Below, piece after piece: positions 36,864 through 55,007 of a DNA stretch of 64,000 nt; the first letter of the stretch is position 1; every line of letters starts with the position of its first letter. The notes below the pieces were generated by a model. That model saw only the letters and a program-made list of their open reading frames with translations. It made no database searches and had not been told where the DNA came from. Both the position numbers and the translations under genes were made by a program. Source of the DNA: Octopus vulgaris (Eukaryota); contig OX597815.1 of assembly GCA_951406725.2 (NCBI GenBank), positions 111,600,001 to 111,664,000 on the forward strand. Reading direction: 5' to 3'.

Positions 36864-38995
36864 AATAGTAAAGTGTGAAAAAACGACAGAAGGCTTAAAT
36901 GTTAAAAAATATATATATTTGTGTCAAAATGTCTGGAGAATATTGGAAAAATTTTTTTTTCCTTTCCTTAAAATGACATAATTTTAAAATTTTTAAAGAA
37001 ATTACCGGTTTCGCGTGTAGCTTTTCAAATTTCTTGTGACGTTATGTTTATATTGCATGGAATTATCGTTGTTTTTATTTCCAGGAGATTTCTAAATAAG
37101 GGGAGGTAGTGAGTGATTTTTTCCGGTGTAGGGGAGATAATCGCTTAAAAAATTTTTTTCCCATTTCCTTGTTAATTTCTCTGTGTCAGTATGTTCGGAT
37201 GGTTGAGTCTGGGTTTGTACTTTTCAATGAAGAATGTTTCCTTGTTCAGTCTCATTTGTGTTGATGATCCGAAAGCACATTGGTAAAATGGGAAGATTAA
37301 AAATTGTGGCAGTAGTTGCTTTGCGCATTTCTCAATGTGCTCACTAAAAGGTATCATTCTATATTCTGGGAATGGAATCTGTTGTCGATGCAGTGTGCAT
37401 CTGCGCCTGAGTGATAGTCCCGTGGAACCCACGTAGTCTTGGTGGCAGCCCGAGCATTTAATAACATAAATTATGTTTTCAGAGGCACAAGTAAAGTTAG
37501 ATTTGATCTTAAATTTCTGTCCCTCTTTAAAGAAGAATTCTGATCCTTCCAATAGGTTAGGACATGTTGCACAGTTCGATCTACCACATTTTTTTACTTT
37601 TGCATCCGTAATTTTAGAAGACAATTTTGCCTTTGTGAGAATCTTTTTAAGTGATTTAGGCTGTTTGTAGCTTTTAATGATTTGGTGTATGTTTAGAATT
37701 TCCTTTAATTTTGGGTTTTATGAAGTATTGGTAAATTCTGGGTGATGATGGTGAAGGCTTCTTTGTTTCTGGGGTTGTATGTAGATATGTAAGGTAGTAT
37801 TTTCGGGGAAGGTGTGTTGTTGTGTTGAACTTTTCTTAAAGTTTCTATGTTGATTTCTGTTGCACGTCTGATCCCATCCTCTATGAGTTGAGCTGGGTAA
37901 TGTCTGTCAATTAGGGTGTTTTTGAGTTCTTGCAGTCTAAAGTTCCTGGTATTTTGTTCTGACACTATTGTGCATATCCTTCTTGCAAGGTTGAAGGGGA
38001 TGTTTGTTTTAGTGTGTCTTGGGTGGCATGAATTAAAAAGAAGGTATTGTTTGGCGTCTGTGGCTTTGTAAAAAATGTCTGTTTCTATTTTAAGGTTAAT
38101 TTTTTTAATTAGTATATCCAAGAACGGGAGCTCCTTTTGGTTGTATTCCATTGTGAACTGTATATTTGGGTTTATGCTGTTCAATAGGTTTTTAAATTTT
38201 AGGAGTTTATCTATGTTTTCATTCCAGAGAATGAAACAATCGTCTAGGAATCGTTTCCAATTCTCTTTTATGTATTGAGAGAGGGAGTTTCCAAAGATTG
38301 ATAGAGATTCCTGGTAAATGATTATTTCCATGTATCCCATTGTTAGGTTCGCAATGACTGGTGCTGCCCTTGTACCCATAGCAATTCCGGATTTTTGACG
38401 GTAAAATGTATTGTCAAACATGAAGTGGTTATTGTGTAGGATGAATTCAATTGATTTAGTAATGAATTCCTTACTGATCCTTTTTGGTATTTCTTCCGGA
38501 AATTGGTCTAACCAGAATTGTATTGCCTCCAGTCCATAATTATGAGGTATACTGGTATACAAGTTGATTACATCAAATGAAACCAGGATTGTTTCTTCCT
38601 TGGTTTTTTTTGGAAGGTGGTTTAACATATCTAAGTCATCTCTGATATGGCTATCGATATGTTTAAGGAAGGGTTTCAAGAGGATGTCCATAAGTAGACT
38701 TAGTCTGTGTGTTTCACAGGTTGGGCCAGCTACAATGGGTCGTAGTTTTAGGTCCCCCGGATTAGGTGTGTGTATGTATGTCTTTGGTGATTTTTTAATG
38801 GTTTCATTTATAATTTGACTTTTATGAATTTTTGGCAGACCATAGAAAAGGCTAGGTTTGCATTTAAAGTTTGTTAGGAAATCAATCTCTTTGGTTGTCA
38901 GTTCCTTTTCATGGGTTTTAATTAGTGAAGATAGAGTTTTCATTATTTTTTGTGGGGTGTAGTTGGTAATTTTTTCATAATGTAGGTCTTCAATA
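36860..38995 (-). mobile_element. 5'-truncated Penelope-like element (Neptune type): RT, Cys-rich linker, GIY-YIG, 3' UTR
   Basis: ORF 37705..38943: FYGLPKIHK, RPIVAG, SFDVINLYTSIP, GIAMGT, WKRFLDD, LPFLDI. ORF 37172..37624: KCGRSNCATC, IIYVIKC..C...YVGST. One frameshift near 37705. Confidence 0.95.
36996..37035 (-). ncRNA. Minimal hammerhead with U3-A8 core in the Penelope 3' UTR
   Basis: Minus strand: aagaaat TTGAAAA gc-tacac-gc GAAA ccgg TA atttctt; 7-bp stem I and palindromic stem III ACCGGT. Confidence 0.7.
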
Positions 38996-45731: not shown

Positions 45732-45937
45732 ACGCTGATGAAAGGTAAACACATTGAAACTCGGGTCCGTGTGTATCATGAGTTGAAGACGGGGAGGATG
45801 ACTCCCCTTCACAAATACTGAGAGGACACAGATAGTGTGTCTATAGCCAGCTGGAGGAGATATCTTCCTGGGGCTACAAACTACAGTAGCATCCACCCTT
45901 AGGGGTTAGCCATATTCAAATGGCAAATATGCGTCAC
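45732..45937 (+). repeat. 206-bp direct repeat, left copy, beginning with a hammerhead (45732-45773)
   Basis: Near-identical to 50985-51190 (two substitutions seen); acg CTGATGA aaggt-aaac-acatt GAAA ctcggg TC cgt. Confidence 0.93.
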
Positions 45938-46304
45938 GATGTGTTACCGCTACTGTTTATAACTCGCTCTGAGATTTATCATTGTTTGATTTCACTTTTT
46001 CAATATCAGTGTCAATCGACAATGGAAAAAGTATATGTATTTGTGAAGGGAGCTGACTTCTCGTCGACAACCCTGATTATTCGTCTAGGGATCCCTCTTT
46101 CATCTGCGTTTTGAGAATTTTGCTGCCTTTTTGTTGAGTGAGTTCGTATTTTTTGTTCGTCGTTGTTTGTGTTACTCGTGAATTGAACAGTTGTCCGTTG
46201 TGTAACAGTAATTTTCGCCCTACGGGGCTGAAAATTCTGTGTTTAAACATTGTCATTACCTTCGAGGTAATTTTTTTAAAACATTTGTTCTCATAATTTG
46301 AGAA

Positions 46305-47605
46305 ATGGAGTTCGACTTGGCGTCGAGGAGTGACTTTCCCGTGATGGGAAGGTAAAAACGGAAGGCAATGAAATTAAACTGGTACCGCCGCAAGCGAAGG
46401 TACAGTTGTATACAAAATTTATAGCAACAAAGAAAAAAAAAATGGATGTCAAGAACGAGATGGTTGAAAAGTGCTTGTCCCCGGTGTGGGACAAAATTCG
46501 CCACATTGTTCGAGGTGCTCGCAGCGCTACCGTTGAAGCACATTTCGACTCGGCTGATGTGGCAAGAGAGGTGTCATCAATGACCTTGAAAAGTGAGGAT
46601 ATCATGTTGCTACCTTCGTATATGGGGAAAAGAACAGCCAAACTACATGTAGAGGATATACCAAGAGGGTATGATATAATGTGGGTAGCAGCGGTAGTCC
46701 TGCACAACGTAGAGCGGGAAGTTTCAATTCTGCAGATGAGAAGGAAAGAGGAGGTGTACTGGAAAGGACAAACGCTAGAACTCCTCGTTCAAGCAGAAAA
46801 TAAGATACTAGAAAACTTACCCGATAGGGTATTTAATGAGGAGGGAACTTCAATGAGAGTGTCAGTGGAGGGGCGCAGACCTGGGTGCTTCAAATGTGGC
46901 GAAAAGGGTCACGTCCGCTCAAACTGCATAAAAAAAAAGAAAATCAACGAAGCCCCTCCTCAAAGTGCTTCAAACTTATCAAGAAAAGGTGGAAATAGAA
47001 CCCAAGACTGCGACAAGGAAAGGAACCGAAACAGAAGATGAAAATAAACAGATGGAATATACACAGGTGACACACAAAAGAAAAAAAGATAACACCCTGG
47101 ACTCCTCTCCCCAAACAAAGAAAAAATCAGCAAACACCGCAGAGATACATACAAAACAAATTCCCCAGCCCTACCCCCACGGCACTGTATTCATTGGAAC
47201 ACAGTTCGCCAAGCCCCTCCCCATAAAACAAGATTTGAAAAAATTGATAAAAAAAATGAAAAGATTATAGCATTTGACGAGAAGAACGATAGGGTGTACA
47301 AGTATTTCAAATTTTCAAAATTTAAACTATTCAGTAAGTCTACAGACACAAAATCAACCACTCGCTTTGCAAAAATAAAGCAAGACGAGTGGAAGGAAAA
47401 AACACCACAAGAACATTTAAAGAATAATCTCATTAGAGATGTAACGAATGAAATACTGGAGGGTAAACTCATTATAACCCCGGCAACCACACCTACCCAG
47501 AGCCCGATGGCAACGCCGGTTAAGAGCCCTGCAGCTACGACCACAAGGGAGGAAGAAGGGGAAGCAGGCAGATTTAAACTGTCATGCTCCCTGTCCCAAC
47601 CGTAA
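46305..47605 (+). pseudogene. Tx1 ORF1 (gag-like, CCHC zinc knuckle), frameshifted
   Basis: CFKCGEKGHVRSNC in 46406..47041; continues in other frames at 46965..47270 and 47294..47605. Confidence 0.82.
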
Positions 47606-47632
47606 GTTTATTTATTTTTTCTCTCTCCGACA

Positions 47633-50600
47633 ATGGCAAAGCTGGGTTGTGTGAATGTGCGTGGAATGGGGTCGAAATGGAAACAAATTTGTTTCCTGAA
47701 CGACCTCACGATACACGGAGTGGACGTAGCTATTGTAACCGAGTCCAAGATGAACGGGGCCCAAGCGTTCTCGCCTCTTCTAAATGGTTTCGAGAAATTT
47801 ATATCTCCTAGCCGAGGAAGAGGAAGGGGCGTGGCAGTCCTTATCAGGAAGAGCTTGGACTTGCAGGTAAGTACTGTCTTTCTGGACCCAGAAGGCAGGC
47901 TGGTCGTTCTGGATGTGACCCACGTAAGTAAACAGTCCTTCAGGTTGGTAGCTGTCTACGCTCCGAATGAGTGTAGGCAGGCGGGTTTTTTTCGGAATCT
48001 GGAGCACTTTTTAGCGACGTCGAAAACGGTAGTCTTAGTAGGGGACTTTAACACTGTCCTTGAAGCGCGGGTCGACAGTGTTGGCTCAACCAATAGGAAG
48101 GGGAACCCTAGCCTCAAGGGTCTACTAGAGAGCTTTGATCTAGTGGAGCGTTATCGACTGGATGAGCCGAGCGTTCCACAGTGGACGTGGAGTAACAACG
48201 ACGGCTCACACAGATCGTATATAGATAGGATATTCGTTAGGAAAAGAGATAAGGATACGTTTAGTTATCCACAGTTTCACATTGTGCCTTACACGGATCA
48301 CAAATTTGTGACTTGTAGGGTGCAATTAGATAAGTGCCATAGACAGGGACCCGGGTACTGGAAGCTGAACAAGTCTATTTTGAATTGTGAAGACTTCCGT
48401 ACCCGGATTAAGGTGTTAGTACAGAGGGCATTGTGTGGCACCATCATTAACAATAGATGGTGGCACTCCCTCAAAAGAGCCATTCGTTCAGAGTCCATTA
48501 GATTTAGCAATCAGCTAAGGTTAGATAGGTCTAGGATAGAGGACGATTTAGTTAAGAATCTAAACGAGGCAATGGAAGCTGGCTCTGCATCCGGAGTGAT
48601 GGCGGCAAGGACGGTATTGTACCGTCACCTTAACTCCAAACACGAAGGTTGCAGAGTTAGAGCTAAGCTACGCGCTGGGAAACGAGAAGGTATTAACGTT
48701 GCCGGATGGGCCCGTCAAGCGGAGAGTCAGAGAGGTAACAAAGCTTCAATCAAGTCTTTAACTGACGAACAGGGACAAAAGATCTATGGACAAGAGGAGA
48801 TGCAAAAGTTTCTTCACCAGCATTTCGCCCGCGCGTTCGGGGGTGGTGTGGCGCCGGAGCGGGGGAGGGCCTTAAAGGACTTCCTAGCCGGCGGACCGCG
48901 GCTCTCGGGGAGTGAGGTGGAGTGCTGTCAAGGAGCGATCACTCCCGTGGAGATAGAGAGGGTACTGGCCGGATGCGCCGGGGAGAAGTCGCCGGAGTTG
49001 GATGGTCTGCCCTACGAGTTTTACCAAAGTATGCCGGACTTGTTCAGGGGAATATTGGCAGGCGTCTACGCGAACTGGCAGCAGAATGGGAGAATTCCCA
49101 GTTCTGTAAGCCGGGGTGTGGTGACGCTAATCCAGAAAGACCCGAGCAAGGGGGATAACATTAGTAATTACAGGCCCATAACTCTACTTAACGTAGAGTT
49201 AAAGATTTTGGCCAAGGTGTTGGCAAAAAGGTTGACGATTGTCGTGGAGAAACTTGTAGGGAAAGCACAGACATGTGCAATTCCAGGCAGGTCGATCCAG
49301 GACAATCTTCACCTTATACGCTACACCTTAGATAGGTTGGGTAAATTAACCGGCAAGGGCGGGGTAATGGTCCATTTAGACCAAAGTAAAGCGTTCGATA
49401 GGGTAGACCATAAGTACCTGGCGACGGTCCTCGAAGCGGCTGGACTGGGCCCTGAATTTCGCAGGTGGATCTCCGCTATGTATAGCGGCATCAAGTCCAC
49501 CGTCCAGATAAACGGTTACCTAACGGAACCGTTTTCGATCGAATGCTCTCGAGCCATTGCTGCGAAAGTTGGAGAGGCTTGGAAGTAACCCGGATGAGAT
49601 CGGAGGTGGGAGGACGGTTACTGCTTATGCGGATGACGTCACCCTCATCGTGTCCAATGGAAGGAAGGGCGGAGGTGGCACAGATGTTCATTGCATCTGT
49701 AATCACTTACCGCCTGACCGCTGTCCCTTGCCCCGATTCATGGCTTAGCAAGTTGGAGCGAATCCTTTTCCGCTTTTTGTGGAAGGGAGGAAAGCCACTT
49801 GTGAGGCGCTCCGTTTGCTGCCAGGAACCGTTAAAGGGTGGGTTAAGAATGCCTTGGTTGATGATGCGCAGGCATGCGTTGAGACTGAAGTATCTCTGGC
49901 ACCACCTGGAGGGTGATAAGGTGTGGAGGCCGCTGGCAGGGGAATTTTTCTCGAGACCGGCTTCCTTAGTGAATTTTAAACCCGGTCACATCAAAAGACG
50001 GAATCTGACTTTATGGCAAAAGGAGTGCCGACAGGCACTCACGCTGATCCACAAGGCGGGCAAGGCCGGCTGCGGAAATACCACCTCGGTATTTTATAGC
50101 AGGCTGGTAGAGGCAAAGAACGACGACGTCCTAGGAGGGGCTCTGGGGTTTGACGAAGACCAGCTTACCAACCTGTTTAAAAAAACTTTCAGGACGGGGT
50201 ATTTGGATAATTTCCAAAGATCCCTGGCCTGGCAGTGTTATAGGAATGCTTTACCTGTTCGCGAGAAGTTATCGCGGCACGGAATTTCAGTGCCACCGAC
50301 GTGTCCAAGATGCGGGTTGGACGATGAAACCGTCCAGCACGCTTTTGTACACTGTCGGAAGTTGTCAGACTTGATAAGTTACGCAGAACACGTGTTATCG
50401 CATCTGGGACGAGTACAGCTGTCGGCTGAGTCTATGATTAAGATGATACCGCCAACTGGACTCTCGAAGGAAGGTGAGGCATGTTTTCACTGCACGGTTG
50501 CAGTAGTAAAATAATGCATGTGGCGTACAAGAATGGAAGGAGTCGCAATAGGATCCTTTGTCTCAGGCCCCAGCTTACTCACTTACTTCAGATACCATCT

Positions 50601-50703
50601 GAAGAGCAAAATGGGGCTGGAAAAGAAGATCTTACCACGAGGTGTGTATGAAAAAAGATGGAAGGAAGTGGCAAAAAAGGTGGGTGTCAGAAACCCAGCT
50701 TAA
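47633..50703 (+). pseudogene. Tx1 ORF2: APE endonuclease + RT + C-terminal Zn finger, disrupted
   Basis: NVRG, VTE, VYAPN, GDFN, SYIDRI, TDH, GPGYWKLN, YRPITLLN, DQSKAFDRVDH; AYADD out of frame (49557..49748); CPRC..ETVQHAFVHC; internal deletions and a stop at 50514. Confidence 0.93.
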
Positions 50704-50981
50704 CTATGGATGGAGGAGAGGAAAGAAAAGCTGCGGGGTCTTATAGGTTGCCGGGGTTTAAAATATATCGGTAAGATCGCAAGTTAATGTAATGTTGTAA
50801 TGTTCTATTAGTCAATGCAAAGGACAATTTAAATACAAATTTTGTATAATGAATAATCCAAATATTATGGAAAATTTTTAATCGAACCACTTAACTGTTT
50901 TTTGTATGTATGTCTTGTATTGTCCTGCTATGTAATGATTTTATAATCGTAATAAAGAAATTCGTCGACGACCCTGATTGT

Positions 50982-51026
50982 CACACGCTGATGAAAGGTA
51001 AACACCTTGAAACTCGGGTCCGTGTG
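50982..51026 (+). ncRNA. Canonical type I hammerhead ribozyme, predicted cleavage after C51020
   Basis: cacacg CTGATGA aaggt-aaac-acctt GAAA ctcggg TC cgtgtg: intact core, 6-bp stem I, 5-bp stem II, quasi-palindromic stem III. Confidence 0.88.
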
Positions 51027-51186
51027 TATCATGAGTTGAAGACGGGGAGGATGACTCCCCTTCACAAATACTGAGAGGTCACAGATAGTGTGTCTATAGC
51101 CAGCTGGAGGAGATATCTTCCTGGGGCTACAAACTACAGTAGCATCCACCCTTAGGGGTTAGCCATATTCAAATGGCAAATATGCG

Positions 51187-51190
<4 letters not shown>
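50985..51190 (+). repeat. 206-bp direct repeat, right copy
   Basis: Matches 45732-45937; followed by (TA)n. Confidence 0.93.
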
Positions 51191-51229
<39 letters not shown>

Positions 51230-51329
51230 GTGTGTATGTATTTGGATTTATATGTAGATATATGTAGATATATATGCCCGTATATGTGTGTATATCTATA
51301 TGTACCTATGCGTGCGTAACTATATGAGT

Positions 51330-54050
51330 ATACTAGGAAGGACATAAGACTTATAGAATTCTTCGCTAACAAAAGTAATGAGATTGATGAATCCCTAGTA
51401 AGGAATAAATCAAATTTCACCCCATCAAAAGGAAGAAATAACTACCTTGACCAATACATTGATATCCTATCTAAATTTCCCCTTAGACGCAATACCAATG
51501 TTAGGCCAAACATTAACAAATCAGGGATGTCTGCATGTAAACGTATACAAAACGATCAAACAATAATAATTAAACAAGCAGATAAAGGTGGTGCAATTGT
51601 TATTATGGATACCGAATACTATAAGGATTTGGTTGAGGACCAACTGAAGGACACAACCTTCTATTGTGAAATACCCTCAATTATAGACCACCACATCATG
51701 AAAAAGATCAACAACCTGATTTCAAAACACTACAACTCACTTACCGATAATGAAAGAGACTACATCACCAATTTCGAACCAAAACCCAGTAACTTCTACG
51801 GCTTACCGAAAATACATAAATCAAAAGATATTCAACATGCAGTAAAAGAACAAGAAAGTGAGTACATAAAATTACTATATCCAAAAGACCTAAAACTTAG
51901 ACCTATTATAGCTGGTCCAGCATGCCCTACCCACCGTCTAAGCAATTTCATTGACAATTTTTTGAAAACACTATGTACTTACCCAGTTTCATCAGGGATG
52001 ACATCGACTTCCTGTCCCACCTTCCCAAAACAACAGAAACAAATTCCGTTTTACTAAGTTTTGATGTGGTAAGCCTCTACACCAATATTCCACACGATTT
52101 AGGAATAAAGGCGATTAAAATACTGGTTAGAAAAACATAGAGAAGTGATTCCCAGCAGATTCACAGTGCCATTTATATTAGACACAGTCAAACTTATTCT
52201 AGAAAACAACACATTCTTCTTCAATGGAAAGAATTACATCCAAATTAGAGGCACGGCGATGGGGACGAGGTTTGCTCCCGTTTACGCCAACTCTGTAATG
52301 GGATACTTAGAACAACAACTCTACCAAGAGGTGGAGGTAAACTATGGCACTGGATTTAGAAAGTATATTGAAAAGGCATGGAAGGGATACCTTGACGACT
52401 GCTTCATAATCTGGACAGAATCTCTAAATACTCTGGAAGAGTTCAATATCCTCCTGAACAACCTACACCCATCTCTCCAATTTACAAAGGAGATGAGTAG
52501 TACCAAATTACCATTCCTAGATATAATGGTAATTAAAAAGGACACCACCATCACCACAGACATATACTATAAACACACAGACACACATCATAACCTGAAT
52601 TTTAAGTCGTGCCATCCACCACATACAAAACGCAACATCCCATACTGCCTAGCCAGAAGAATTTGTACCATTGTAGAAGATGCAAATATCAGGAACAAAC
52701 GCCTAACAGAACTAAGAGAATATTTGCTCAAACAAAAATACCCATCTCTACATATAGAAAATGGCATACAGCGGGCTATAAAAATACCCATACAACAACT
52801 TAGGACAACCCAAAGAAGAGGAAAACAAGATCAAGTCATACCATTCATAGTGACACACAACTCATGTCACCAGAATATCTTCAGCATTGCCAAAGCAAAC
52901 CTACCAATCATTGCTCAAAGTAATGAATTAAAAGATATAATCACAGATCGAGCTATGGTTCTTAGTAAAAGACAGCCTAAAAACTTGAAAAAATTACTAA
53001 CAAAGGCAAAATTTGACCTTAGCAACAAAGACCAAACATTCACTGTATCTAAATGCAATGATAGCCGATGTGGCACATGCCAATTCATACATACCGGCCA
53101 ATATATAAACACAAAAACCGGGAAAATATTCACAAACGCGAATATGAACTGCAAAAGCAGAAATTTAATTTACTGCATTAAATGCAAAATTGTGAAGAAA
53201 TATATGTAGGTCAGTCGGGAAATATATTATATTTCCATTCTACAAATTACACAGCCCAAGTGAAATCAAAGGAAATTACACAGCCCAAGTGAAATCAAGA
53301 GGAAAATCAAAGTAAAAAGTATTTTATTGATAAATTCGAACCCAAGCTAAATAAGCAATAATAATAATACTTAGAGATACTACTTCTACTGCTACGACCA
53401 TGACCACTAACAACAACAACAATACTAAAGGTGATCAAGATGAAGATTGCAGGAAAATTATCTTATTTAGGGTTAAAAGTTCTATTGCCATCACCATCAC
53501 CACTAGCAACAATAATTAAGGTGCTGACAATGATGATGATGACAATTGAAATATAAAAATCCCTGACAAAGGCTATTTACAACATTTCTAAAAATAGCCC
53601 AACAATTGCTGCCTCGGCCAGGGTTAAGATACAGGACTCTTGACATGTTCAACAAAGCGTGACGCCTAAAACATTCAGCTTAAGTAATTGAGTGATGCTA
53701 CACACTGATTGGTCAGAATACAGTATGCAAAACCTAGCAATCTGGAGCCTACATAGGTGTATTTAAGGCACATATTTAACCATCTCGCTACAGTCAAAAA
53801 TTGTGAAGCATGACTGTCACCACCACTACATGAACCTGAAGATTGCATAATTTAATGCATGAAAGTACTAGTTCAAACAGAGTGAACATTTAACAGTCTA
53901 TTATTTTATTTTATTTTATTATATTATATTATATTATATTATATTATATTATATTATATTATATCATTATAAGATTGTAAATAAAACGTGAAAATCAGAC
54001 AAGGTTGGAATTCCTTTTATTAATATATTCTTCTATACACAATCACACAC
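51330..54050 (+). mobile_element. Penelope-like element (Neptune type), frameshifted, with 3' UTR
   Basis: ADKGGAIV, FYGLPKIHK, RPIIAG (51527..52057); GTAMGT, YLDD, LPFLDI, KCNDSRCGTC, NLIYCIKC (52145..53209); GIY-YIG domain internally deleted. Confidence 0.94.
53831..53875 (+). ncRNA. Minimal type I hammerhead in the Penelope 3' UTR/pLTR
   Basis: tgaac CTGAAGA t tgcat-aattta-atgca t GAAA gtac TA gttca. Confidence 0.85.
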
Positions 54051-54508
54051 ACCAGTATATATATCTATACATATATGTATGCATATTATGTACGTGTGCA
54101 TTTTTTGTGTGTACGTATACACGTGCGTGCATCTACATGTATATGTGTGTGTATGTATTTGTGTATGCGGGATGCGCTTGAATCTGAGATACTGATTTTG
54201 CAGAGGCAATATTTATTTATATATCATGTAAGGAATCACAACTAGATTTCAGTATGCAGGGAAACGGTTGCATAACCAAAAACTTGTGAACCTGGAGAAC
54301 TACGTTGCTTGGAAACAATTGTAGTGATCACAAATAAATGTCCAACTATACTTGTACTTACTCAATTATCCATCACACACTTCAGTAATCCCAACACAAA
54401 TCTGGCAGTACGTATAATGCTACGGTTGGAGAGCACCGAGAGAAATCTAAAGGTGGACGAGCTTTATACAGTACTCTACTACGTTCTTAACAGAATATAC
54501 CCTACCTA

Positions 54509-54793: not shown

Positions 54794-54798
<5 letters not shown>

Positions 54799-55007
54799 TA
54801 TATGTTACATTACTCGGTAGTCAAGATAAAACTCTGAGTTTCAGATGCCGAAGTGGAAATCCACAACACCATCTCTTCGGTTATCTGGCTATTTGAAAAC
54901 GTTTTCAAATAGCCAGATAACCGAAGAGATGGTGTTGTGGATTTCCACTTCGGCATCTGAAACTCAGAGTTTTATCTTGACTACCGAGTAATGTAACATA
55001 TAGTATA
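54794..55007. repeat. Perfect 214-bp palindrome centred at 54900/54901, with an HHR-like motif in each arm
   Basis: 107-bp arms, no spacer. Plus arm: agataa CCGAAGA gatg-...-catc t GAAA ctcagag TT ttatct (54915-54977). Confidence 0.92.

Follow-up and report, generated by a model that had tools for sequence, protein, structure and literature searches.

The window analysed here, a stretch of 64,000 nucleotides from Octopus vulgaris (contig OX597815.1, positions 111,600,001 to 111,664,000 of the forward strand), contains two hammerhead ribozyme cores, at 45735 and 50988, inside a 209-nt direct repeat whose copies lie 5,253 bp apart. An earlier note on this DNA had joined two pieces around the interval, 45768-46078 and 50980-51020, into a 352-nt monomer. 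What lies between these pieces is a 4,883-bp LINE flanked by an 18-bp target-site duplication (TSD; 46061-46078 and 50962-50979, identical at 17 of 18 positions). From left to right, the features of the locus are as follows.

45732 to 46078, + strand: retrozyme unit 1 (family A), 5'-truncated and running through the left TSD; it matches family copies at 90-100%.
45735 to 45773, + strand: type I hammerhead 1, with its core at 45735 and the cleavage triplet at 45765-45767, identified by comparison with the second core and family copies.
45768 to 46078, + strand: body of the monomer, with helices 45805-45818/46037-46050 and 45883-45890/45949-45956 plus hairpins, based on fold and covariation.
46061 to 46078, + strand: left TSD copy of the LINE, from comparison of the duplication.
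46079 to 50961, + strand: site-specific APE/RT LINE of the L1 group, with a Tx1-like build, 4,883 bp.
46334 to 47041, + strand: 5' part of LINE ORF1 with a CCHC zinc knuckle; the frame is broken further down.
47606 to 50514, + strand: LINE ORF2 in pieces, with AP endonuclease and reverse transcriptase (RT) at 47606-49588 and zf-RVT at 49486-50514.
50962 to 50979, + strand: right TSD copy; the hammerhead core lies 26 nt past the LINE 3' end.
50962 to 51193, + strand: second partial retrozyme unit, stopping at the fixed 3' end of the family (unit position ~206).
50975 to 51032, + strand: type I hammerhead 2, intact, with an extended stem I, the core at 50988, stem II, a palindromic stem III and predicted cleavage after 51020.
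51191 to 51275, no strand: (TA)n microsatellite at the 3' end of the array, the preferred insertion target of the repeat.

The first hammerhead has a stem I truncated on its 5' side and a mismatch in stem II, and is probably impaired. An Rfam search of the window returned no hammerhead at the gathering threshold, and it is by motif, fold, and covariation that the ribozyme is identified. Beside a (TA)n run, the window also holds a perfect palindrome with 107-bp arms (54794-55007); an Rfam mir-9 match at 54865-54936 scores equally on both strands and may merely reflect the palindrome hairpin.

The reconstruction of the monomer is valid: all 352 nt align without gaps, at 99.1% identity, to an uninterrupted unit (L002). 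The two long helices listed above (14 and 8 bp) are exact reverse complements at the places proposed for them, the three local hairpin motifs are present in the sequence, and both helices occur together with the extension of stem I in the circular minimum free energy (MFE) structure of the 352-nt unit (-118 kcal/mol). A third pairing proposed earlier, cattgtttgatt with aatcgacaatg, is seen in the centroid of the 310-nt fold but is absent from both MFE structures and involves a copy-specific base, the four other family-A copies aligned reading differently at that position; the conserved, covarying helix near it is a neighbouring hairpin (columns 74-81/87-95). The monomer had also been described as non-coding, and the longest ATG-initiated ORF on either strand of the circle is indeed 56 aa. 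Taken alone, the natural 310-nt stretch folds with z = -6.1, none of 100 shuffles being as good, and the circular MFE of natural units gives z between -3.7 and -10.8 in all 13 units folded (25 shuffles each).

A search of the animal's own genome (2.8 Gb) for family A gave 2,390 first-look candidates, 40 of them scored, with 132 matches, which rules out single-copy status; searches seeded with LINE flanks gave further families, with 3,275, 1,949, 1,810, and 2,274 candidates in sets that may overlap. Core-to-core spacing in family A is 350-353 nt in 17 of 17 intervals found, and families C, D, E, and F have periods of 354-370 nt and, in the parts that align, share 70-87% identity with the window unit. 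Across 11 aligned units, taken from 40 full ones, pairing is retained in 94% of cells and two-sided changes occur at 27 of 66 pairs, a count that none of 500 shuffles reached, slid controls giving 3-8; with related sequences as rows and cells that are not independent events, we read this as support rather than as a p-value, the structure having been derived from the same alignment except for the hand-set hammerhead stems. The covariation across genomic copies that the earlier note called for is thus present, both inside the ribozyme and outside it, in helices 1-3 and 9-13.

That the monomer is a unit of a type I hammerhead non-LTR retrozyme, a known kind, is therefore supported: the repeat has a type I hammerhead in tandem units within the 150-450 bp range, many copies, a unit GC content of 0.42-0.47 (below 50%), no coding capacity, and a conserved structure. 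The type I topology and the head-to-tail units set it apart from a plant LTR retrozyme, which has type III hammerheads in its LTRs. The fold had been likened to either a viroid or a retrozyme, and the second half of that comparison stands. Viroids have no DNA counterpart and replicate as RNA. It is extremely improbable that the octopus repeat is an integrated viroid-like or otherwise infectious circular RNA, a reading that draws on size and high self-pairing only and is contradicted by thousands of candidate genomic copies bearing marks of retrotransposition, by a hammerhead core on one strand only, and by the branched fold of the unit. The retrozymes of other metazoans (Cervera and de la Pena, 2020, PMC7229834; Li, Clavereau and Pollet, 2026, bioRxiv 10.64898/2026.07.22.740005) are alike in their type I hammerhead, short tandem non-coding units, GC content below 50%, high copy number, and stable fold; those of mussel and axolotl have units of ~350 nt, as here, and a Penelope partner has likewise been proposed for them. 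In octopus, by contrast, most arrays have one or two units, their 3' ends are fixed and lie in (AT)n, and 5' copies are inverted, an anatomy that directly supports mobilisation by Penelope. The main texts of these two papers do not name Octopus, and that of the second does not name Tx1. As an observation on the wider diversity of such repeats, one further locus (L174) is an array of at least four units, each 359-360 nt long, from a separate hammerhead family that has C at position 4 of the core.

The conservation of the ribozyme itself is consistent with function. Of 167 cores, 158 have a stem III segment that can pair fully with itself, in at least six different sequences, and cofolding pairs two stem III segments with each other, which points to cleavage as dimers, a known concept for hammerheads with a palindromic stem III. 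Among the same 167 cores the 3-8 pair is C-G in 124, U-G in 24, U-A in 17, and C-A in 2; this covariation points to selection on catalysis, and rescue by a C3-G8 pair has been described (Frangieh et al., 2024, PMC11167929). A predicted hammerhead is nonetheless weak evidence of activity, because only one of nine predicted Xenopus dimers was cleaved in vitro (bioRxiv 2026.07.22.740005). The same study takes two complete consecutive hammerheads as the sign of an active locus; two motif-matching cores one period apart are present in 16 of the 28 family-A loci scanned, and the window locus does not have two complete hammerheads in succession. With the first core damaged and 4.9 kb of LINE between the cores, the window locus is an unlikely source of the expressed circular RNA that the earlier note proposed and, as it now reads, presumably cannot yield a 352-nt circle; the family may form circles by analogy with the retrozymes of coral, mussel, and axolotl (PMC7229834). 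Nineteen public sequence rows, under four organism labels, contain part of the array, none of them on record as RNA. Contigs from 4 of 24 runs (guessed to be RNA) cover repeat and LINE and in all four cases bridge the empty site (46078 to 45732; 46069 to 50971); LINE-free units exist in these four data sets, in contigs that cannot separate a circle from a tandem array. The 5' ends of inserted segments were considered as a mark of cleavage in vivo and rejected: five such ends among 43 do lie at unit positions 30-36, but their junctions reflect stem I microhomology or are offset.

The ends of the arrays bear on how the repeat moves. Of 48 array 3' ends in 28 family-A loci, 43 lie at unit positions 204-210 or 248-253. 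An AT run follows directly in 39 of those 43, and an inverted copy is found in 23 of the 28 loci; arrays are mostly one or two units long, and dispersed copies are 90-100% identical with precise ends. For one Penelope protein, two internal RT start sites and an AT-rich nicking target are reported (PMC11167929), and Penelope elements have an inverted 5' copy, a tail, and a bias to microsatellites (Craig et al., 2021, bioRxiv 2021.04.23.441226). Because the fixed ends, the AT-run target, and the inverted copies match these features, we infer that the repeat is mobilised in trans by Penelope-like machinery. Tandem retrozyme transcripts would be cut by hammerheads acting as dimers through their palindromic stem III, the resulting ~352-nt units may be circularised, and a Penelope-like RT/endonuclease would copy them in trans into (AT)n microsatellites, beginning at set positions within the unit (~206 and 249-252) and often forming an inverted 5' copy. 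The genome holds a Penelope family with 11,838 first-look candidates, many open 775-aa frames, and, in the one unit examined, an end in (TA)n. No Penelope protein match was found in the array flanks, either in 29 loci or in 110 loci with 1.5-kb flanks and two query proteins, and the repeat sequence has no match in the 4,271-bp unit of the dominant Penelope family (L237), the single family examined in full.

These marks also raise the question of whether the repeat is simply part of a Penelope element. Penelope pLTRs resemble it in having a hammerhead, two preferred 3' ends ~45 nt apart (the 'tail'), an AT-rich or microsatellite target, and an inverted 5'-truncated copy (Frangieh et al., 2024; Craig et al., 2021); they differ from it in that the octopus repeat has no ORF, makes up the whole element, and is without a matching autonomous partner among the sequences searched. 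We consider it very improbable that the repeat is the pLTR of an autonomous Penelope, or an inert satellite, with its structure a leftover. Type I hammerheads do occur in pLTRs, one study derives retrozymes from pLTRs (bioRxiv 2026.07.22.740005), and a Penelope lies ~150 bp downstream within the window, but no Penelope ORF adjoins the arrays in the loci searched, and the neighbour is 5'-truncated, has a different hammerhead of its own, and is set off by (TA)n. The near-identity and precise ends of the dispersed arrays, together with compensatory changes extending beyond the ribozyme, likewise speak against a structural relic. The neighbouring Penelope (51345-54086, + strand) is frameshifted, ends in (TA)n, carries a minimal type I hammerhead with a palindromic stem III near 53830-53876, and belongs to the very large family with the 4,271-bp unit and many open 775-aa frames. 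A second, more divergent Penelope fragment with an RT and GIY-YIG region lies at ~37200-38950 on the - strand, its protein 40-55% identical to that of the first.

The LINE that interrupts the array is a defective copy, without ~112 bp and ~270 bp that are found in other copies (~5.3 kb), and it ends just past AATAAA with no poly(A) tail. It encodes a zinc-knuckle ORF1 and an ORF2 with AP endonuclease, RT, and C-terminal zf-RVT, which is in pieces in the window and forms an open frame of 1,146 residues in another copy. The closest named match to the LINE protein is from Argonauta hians (63%), and the closest relative of ORF2 with a solved structure is human LINE-1 ORF2. No named Tx1 reference is among the database matches to the LINE proteins, and by its build the element would be placed in the L1 group with a Tx1-like build, the combination of a zinc-knuckle ORF1 with an AP endonuclease/RT ORF2 being one that we take to be typical of Tx1. 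The Atlas neighbours of an ORF1 from another locus (L074:1085-2521) are zinc-knuckle proteins, including a ZCCHC3-like RNA-binding cluster (score 0.90). At several LINE 5' ends (L080, L090, L092, L098, and others), the first ~10 bases look like the host stretch usually found after the duplication, the 5' strand of stem I, which suggests mimicry or capture of host sequence.

The insertion in the window is one of many at the same position. Among 64 LINE 3' ends inspected (40 scored matches and 24 further ones among 58 exact pattern matches), 61 lie at the same site of the repeat just upstream of the hammerhead core: 57 run directly into a hammerhead repeat and four into another LINE at the site with the repeat upstream, the remaining three being off target. 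Every one of the 58 exact pattern matches belongs to these 61. This sample consists of best matches and the exact pattern, so older copies are under-sampled in it; ends were assigned to loci by hand, and one locus (L018, a duplicate of L010) was left out throughout. Of 63 LINE ends scored, 43 (29 of 39 and 14 of 24) have the core exactly 26 nt downstream, and the remaining scored ends have the core at 24-33 nt, a mutated or deleted core, or a tandem or off-target arrangement. Full-length copies have TSDs of 14-22 bp whose sequence tracks the host family, and five 5'-truncated copies have TSDs of their own (L079, L082, L091, L093, L229). None of the three off-target copies has any repeat sequence with it, and in at least two a short duplication is clear. 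For comparison, Kojima (2015, PMC4494074) uses as a criterion of target specificity that more than 20% of copies be flanked by one sequence; here the figure is 61 of 64. Two loci of family F, which is far more divergent and has a longer stem I, have also been hit by the LINE (L082, L230), with the core 33 nt rather than 26 nt away and the site homologous in the alignment.

A sister LINE family, whose ORF2 pieces are 78-87% identical to the first, uses the same site. Of its 11 exact 3' ends, seven run directly into the repeat, three into the target motif followed by another element, and one is off target, and the two families stand in tandem in L211, L215, and L226. Past the sister LINE and the target motif, L233 and L235 share an uncharacterised sequence that may be the 5' end of a further, third user of this site. 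The short nick motif is much too frequent to account for the choice of site, with 199 matches in 385 kb of flank, or ~1.4 million genome sites by extrapolation; a two-part recognition motif fits 37 of 47 targets but still extrapolates to ~100,000 sites. We propose that the guest Tx1-like LINE carries out target-primed reverse transcription of its own at a position ~26 nt before the hammerhead core, an event that creates the 14-22-bp duplication, and that a multi-copy, dispensable, and probably transcribed repeat would offer it a safe landing site.

A fixed junction between two elements could instead mean that they travel together. Seen this way, a single repeat-LINE-repeat composite, arisen once or twice, has been spread whole by Penelope-type machinery, with no target preference on the part of the LINE itself. 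Composites do share 3' ends and inverted 5' copies with free arrays, and the LINE sorts by host: in LINE and host trees of 32 rows (7 of 39 loci being left out: three off-target, one tandem, one of family F, and two with deletions), two LINE subfamilies, split with support of 100/100, include 18 copies in A/B-type hosts and 14 in hosts of C/D/E type; the Mantel rho is 0.69, a value that none of 2,000 permutations reached. This sorting, however, rests mostly on one split, equivalent to one event, and is no proof of co-evolution. The distances within subfamilies point the other way, the host repeats being about tenfold more divergent than the LINEs within them: in the second subfamily (14 copies) the median LINE distance is 0.024 and the host-repeat distance has a median of 0.221 and a maximum of 0.357, and in the first the medians are 2.4% and 7.7%. 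Because the LINEs differ by ~2% and their hosts by 22% (median), and because five truncated copies have their own TSDs, the sequences indicate that the LINE insertions were independent and site-specific; a single composite master copy could not give rise to such a pattern. The tracking of host family by the TSDs, the LINE-LINE tandems at the site (L079, L221), the use of that site by the sister family, and the repeat-free off-target copies likewise count against a composite that moves only as a whole, which we regard as quite improbable. Clean LINE insertion does not account for every copy, since seven truncated copies have neither a TSD nor a same-strand repeat upstream (L064, L068, L076, L095, L186, L216, L225), and in L095 an inverted repeat copy is joined straight to the LINE; Penelope machinery may have carried some composites, or later rearrangement altered them. 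Composite spread may thus be a secondary route for a minority of copies and is largely refuted as the sole route. Two arrangements at inverted arrays can be recorded here. In L067, an inverted retrozyme array has a LINE in each arm, the second LINE being 5'-truncated and preceded by repeat up to about the ribozyme cut; in L076, the truncated LINE is preceded by an inverted repeat copy whose start is the LINE target site, an arrangement that nicking of the site in both arms would produce.

A more speculative possibility, to which we give less than even credence, is that the retrozyme serves the LINE as its promoter, as a device for processing its RNA, and as a guide. The LINE would be co-transcribed with the array, and the flanking hammerheads would excise a poly(A)-less RNA of ~5.6 kb, possibly circularised, consisting of one retrozyme unit with the LINE inside; host sequence at the ends of this RNA would direct new insertions to other members of the same retrozyme family, and Penelope machinery could copy the composite as well. 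Hints come from the absence of a poly(A) tail at all LINE 3' ends inspected, from the sorting of subfamilies by host, from a short nick motif with ~1.4 million sites, and from the 5' flank in L074. There, a LINE of the B-host clade sits in a host that is otherwise A-type (19 of 21 sites further up, 99% A downstream), but the 72 nt of 5' flank next to the LINE are B-type (10 of 12 diagnostic sites), which would be expected of a LINE RNA that includes host sequence from upstream. Gene conversion could also explain L074 and is a live alternative because another locus, L231, looks like a recombinant. Against RNA guidance, the off-target LINE copies carry no repeat sequence, and DNA-only recognition of a longer motif is a possible alternative to an RNA guide. 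R2 elements have a 5' ribozyme and carry over 5' flank. The octopus LINE is similar to R2 in its site-specific insertion into a transcribed repeat, with possible co-transcription and upstream host carry-over (L074), and differs in having an AP endonuclease rather than a restriction-like endonuclease and in that any ribozyme processing would be supplied by a mobile host repeat. R2 is co-transcribed with its host gene in 28S rRNA genes (PMC4494074).

Overall, we consider it highly likely that two or more LINE families land specifically in a Penelope-type retrozyme family. The sequences themselves show the anatomy, the structure of the copies, the covariation, the site specificity, and the independence of the insertions, whereas the ribozyme cleavage, circles, Penelope partner, and mode of site recognition are what we infer. 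Target-specific LINEs of the Tx1 clade include Tx1 in Tx1D, Tx1-Mar in Mariner-N4, Keno in U2 snRNA genes, and Kibi and Koshi in microsatellites, and the legend of Fig. 3 in the same paper also names U5, 5S, and unspecified 'satellites' among the targets (Kojima, 2015, PMC4494074); the last of these may be a precedent. The octopus LINE is like them in occupying a fixed place in another multi-copy element and in forming tandem insertions around the TSD, and unlike them in that its target is a ribozyme-bearing retrozyme, with host families up to ~35% diverged and at least two LINE families using one site. We found no report of a LINE targeting retrozymes or hammerhead repeats in a literature search that covered openly accessible papers, and passages of PMC7943196 hold nothing relevant on such an element.

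The retrozyme repeat alone adds just one more member to a known kind. Retrozyme targeting, in turn, would be a new target class for site-specific AP-endonuclease LINEs, and it would produce a three-level nest of microsatellite, retrozyme, and LINE in which the LINE is a parasite of a parasite. Whether a LINE or a Penelope moves animal retrozymes was left open by Cervera and de la Pena (PMC7229834), and the marks in octopus are of the Penelope type. The divergent natural targets form a series from which it may be possible to find what such an endonuclease reads, and the locus offers a testable case of a retrotransposon that may borrow the ribozyme of its host.
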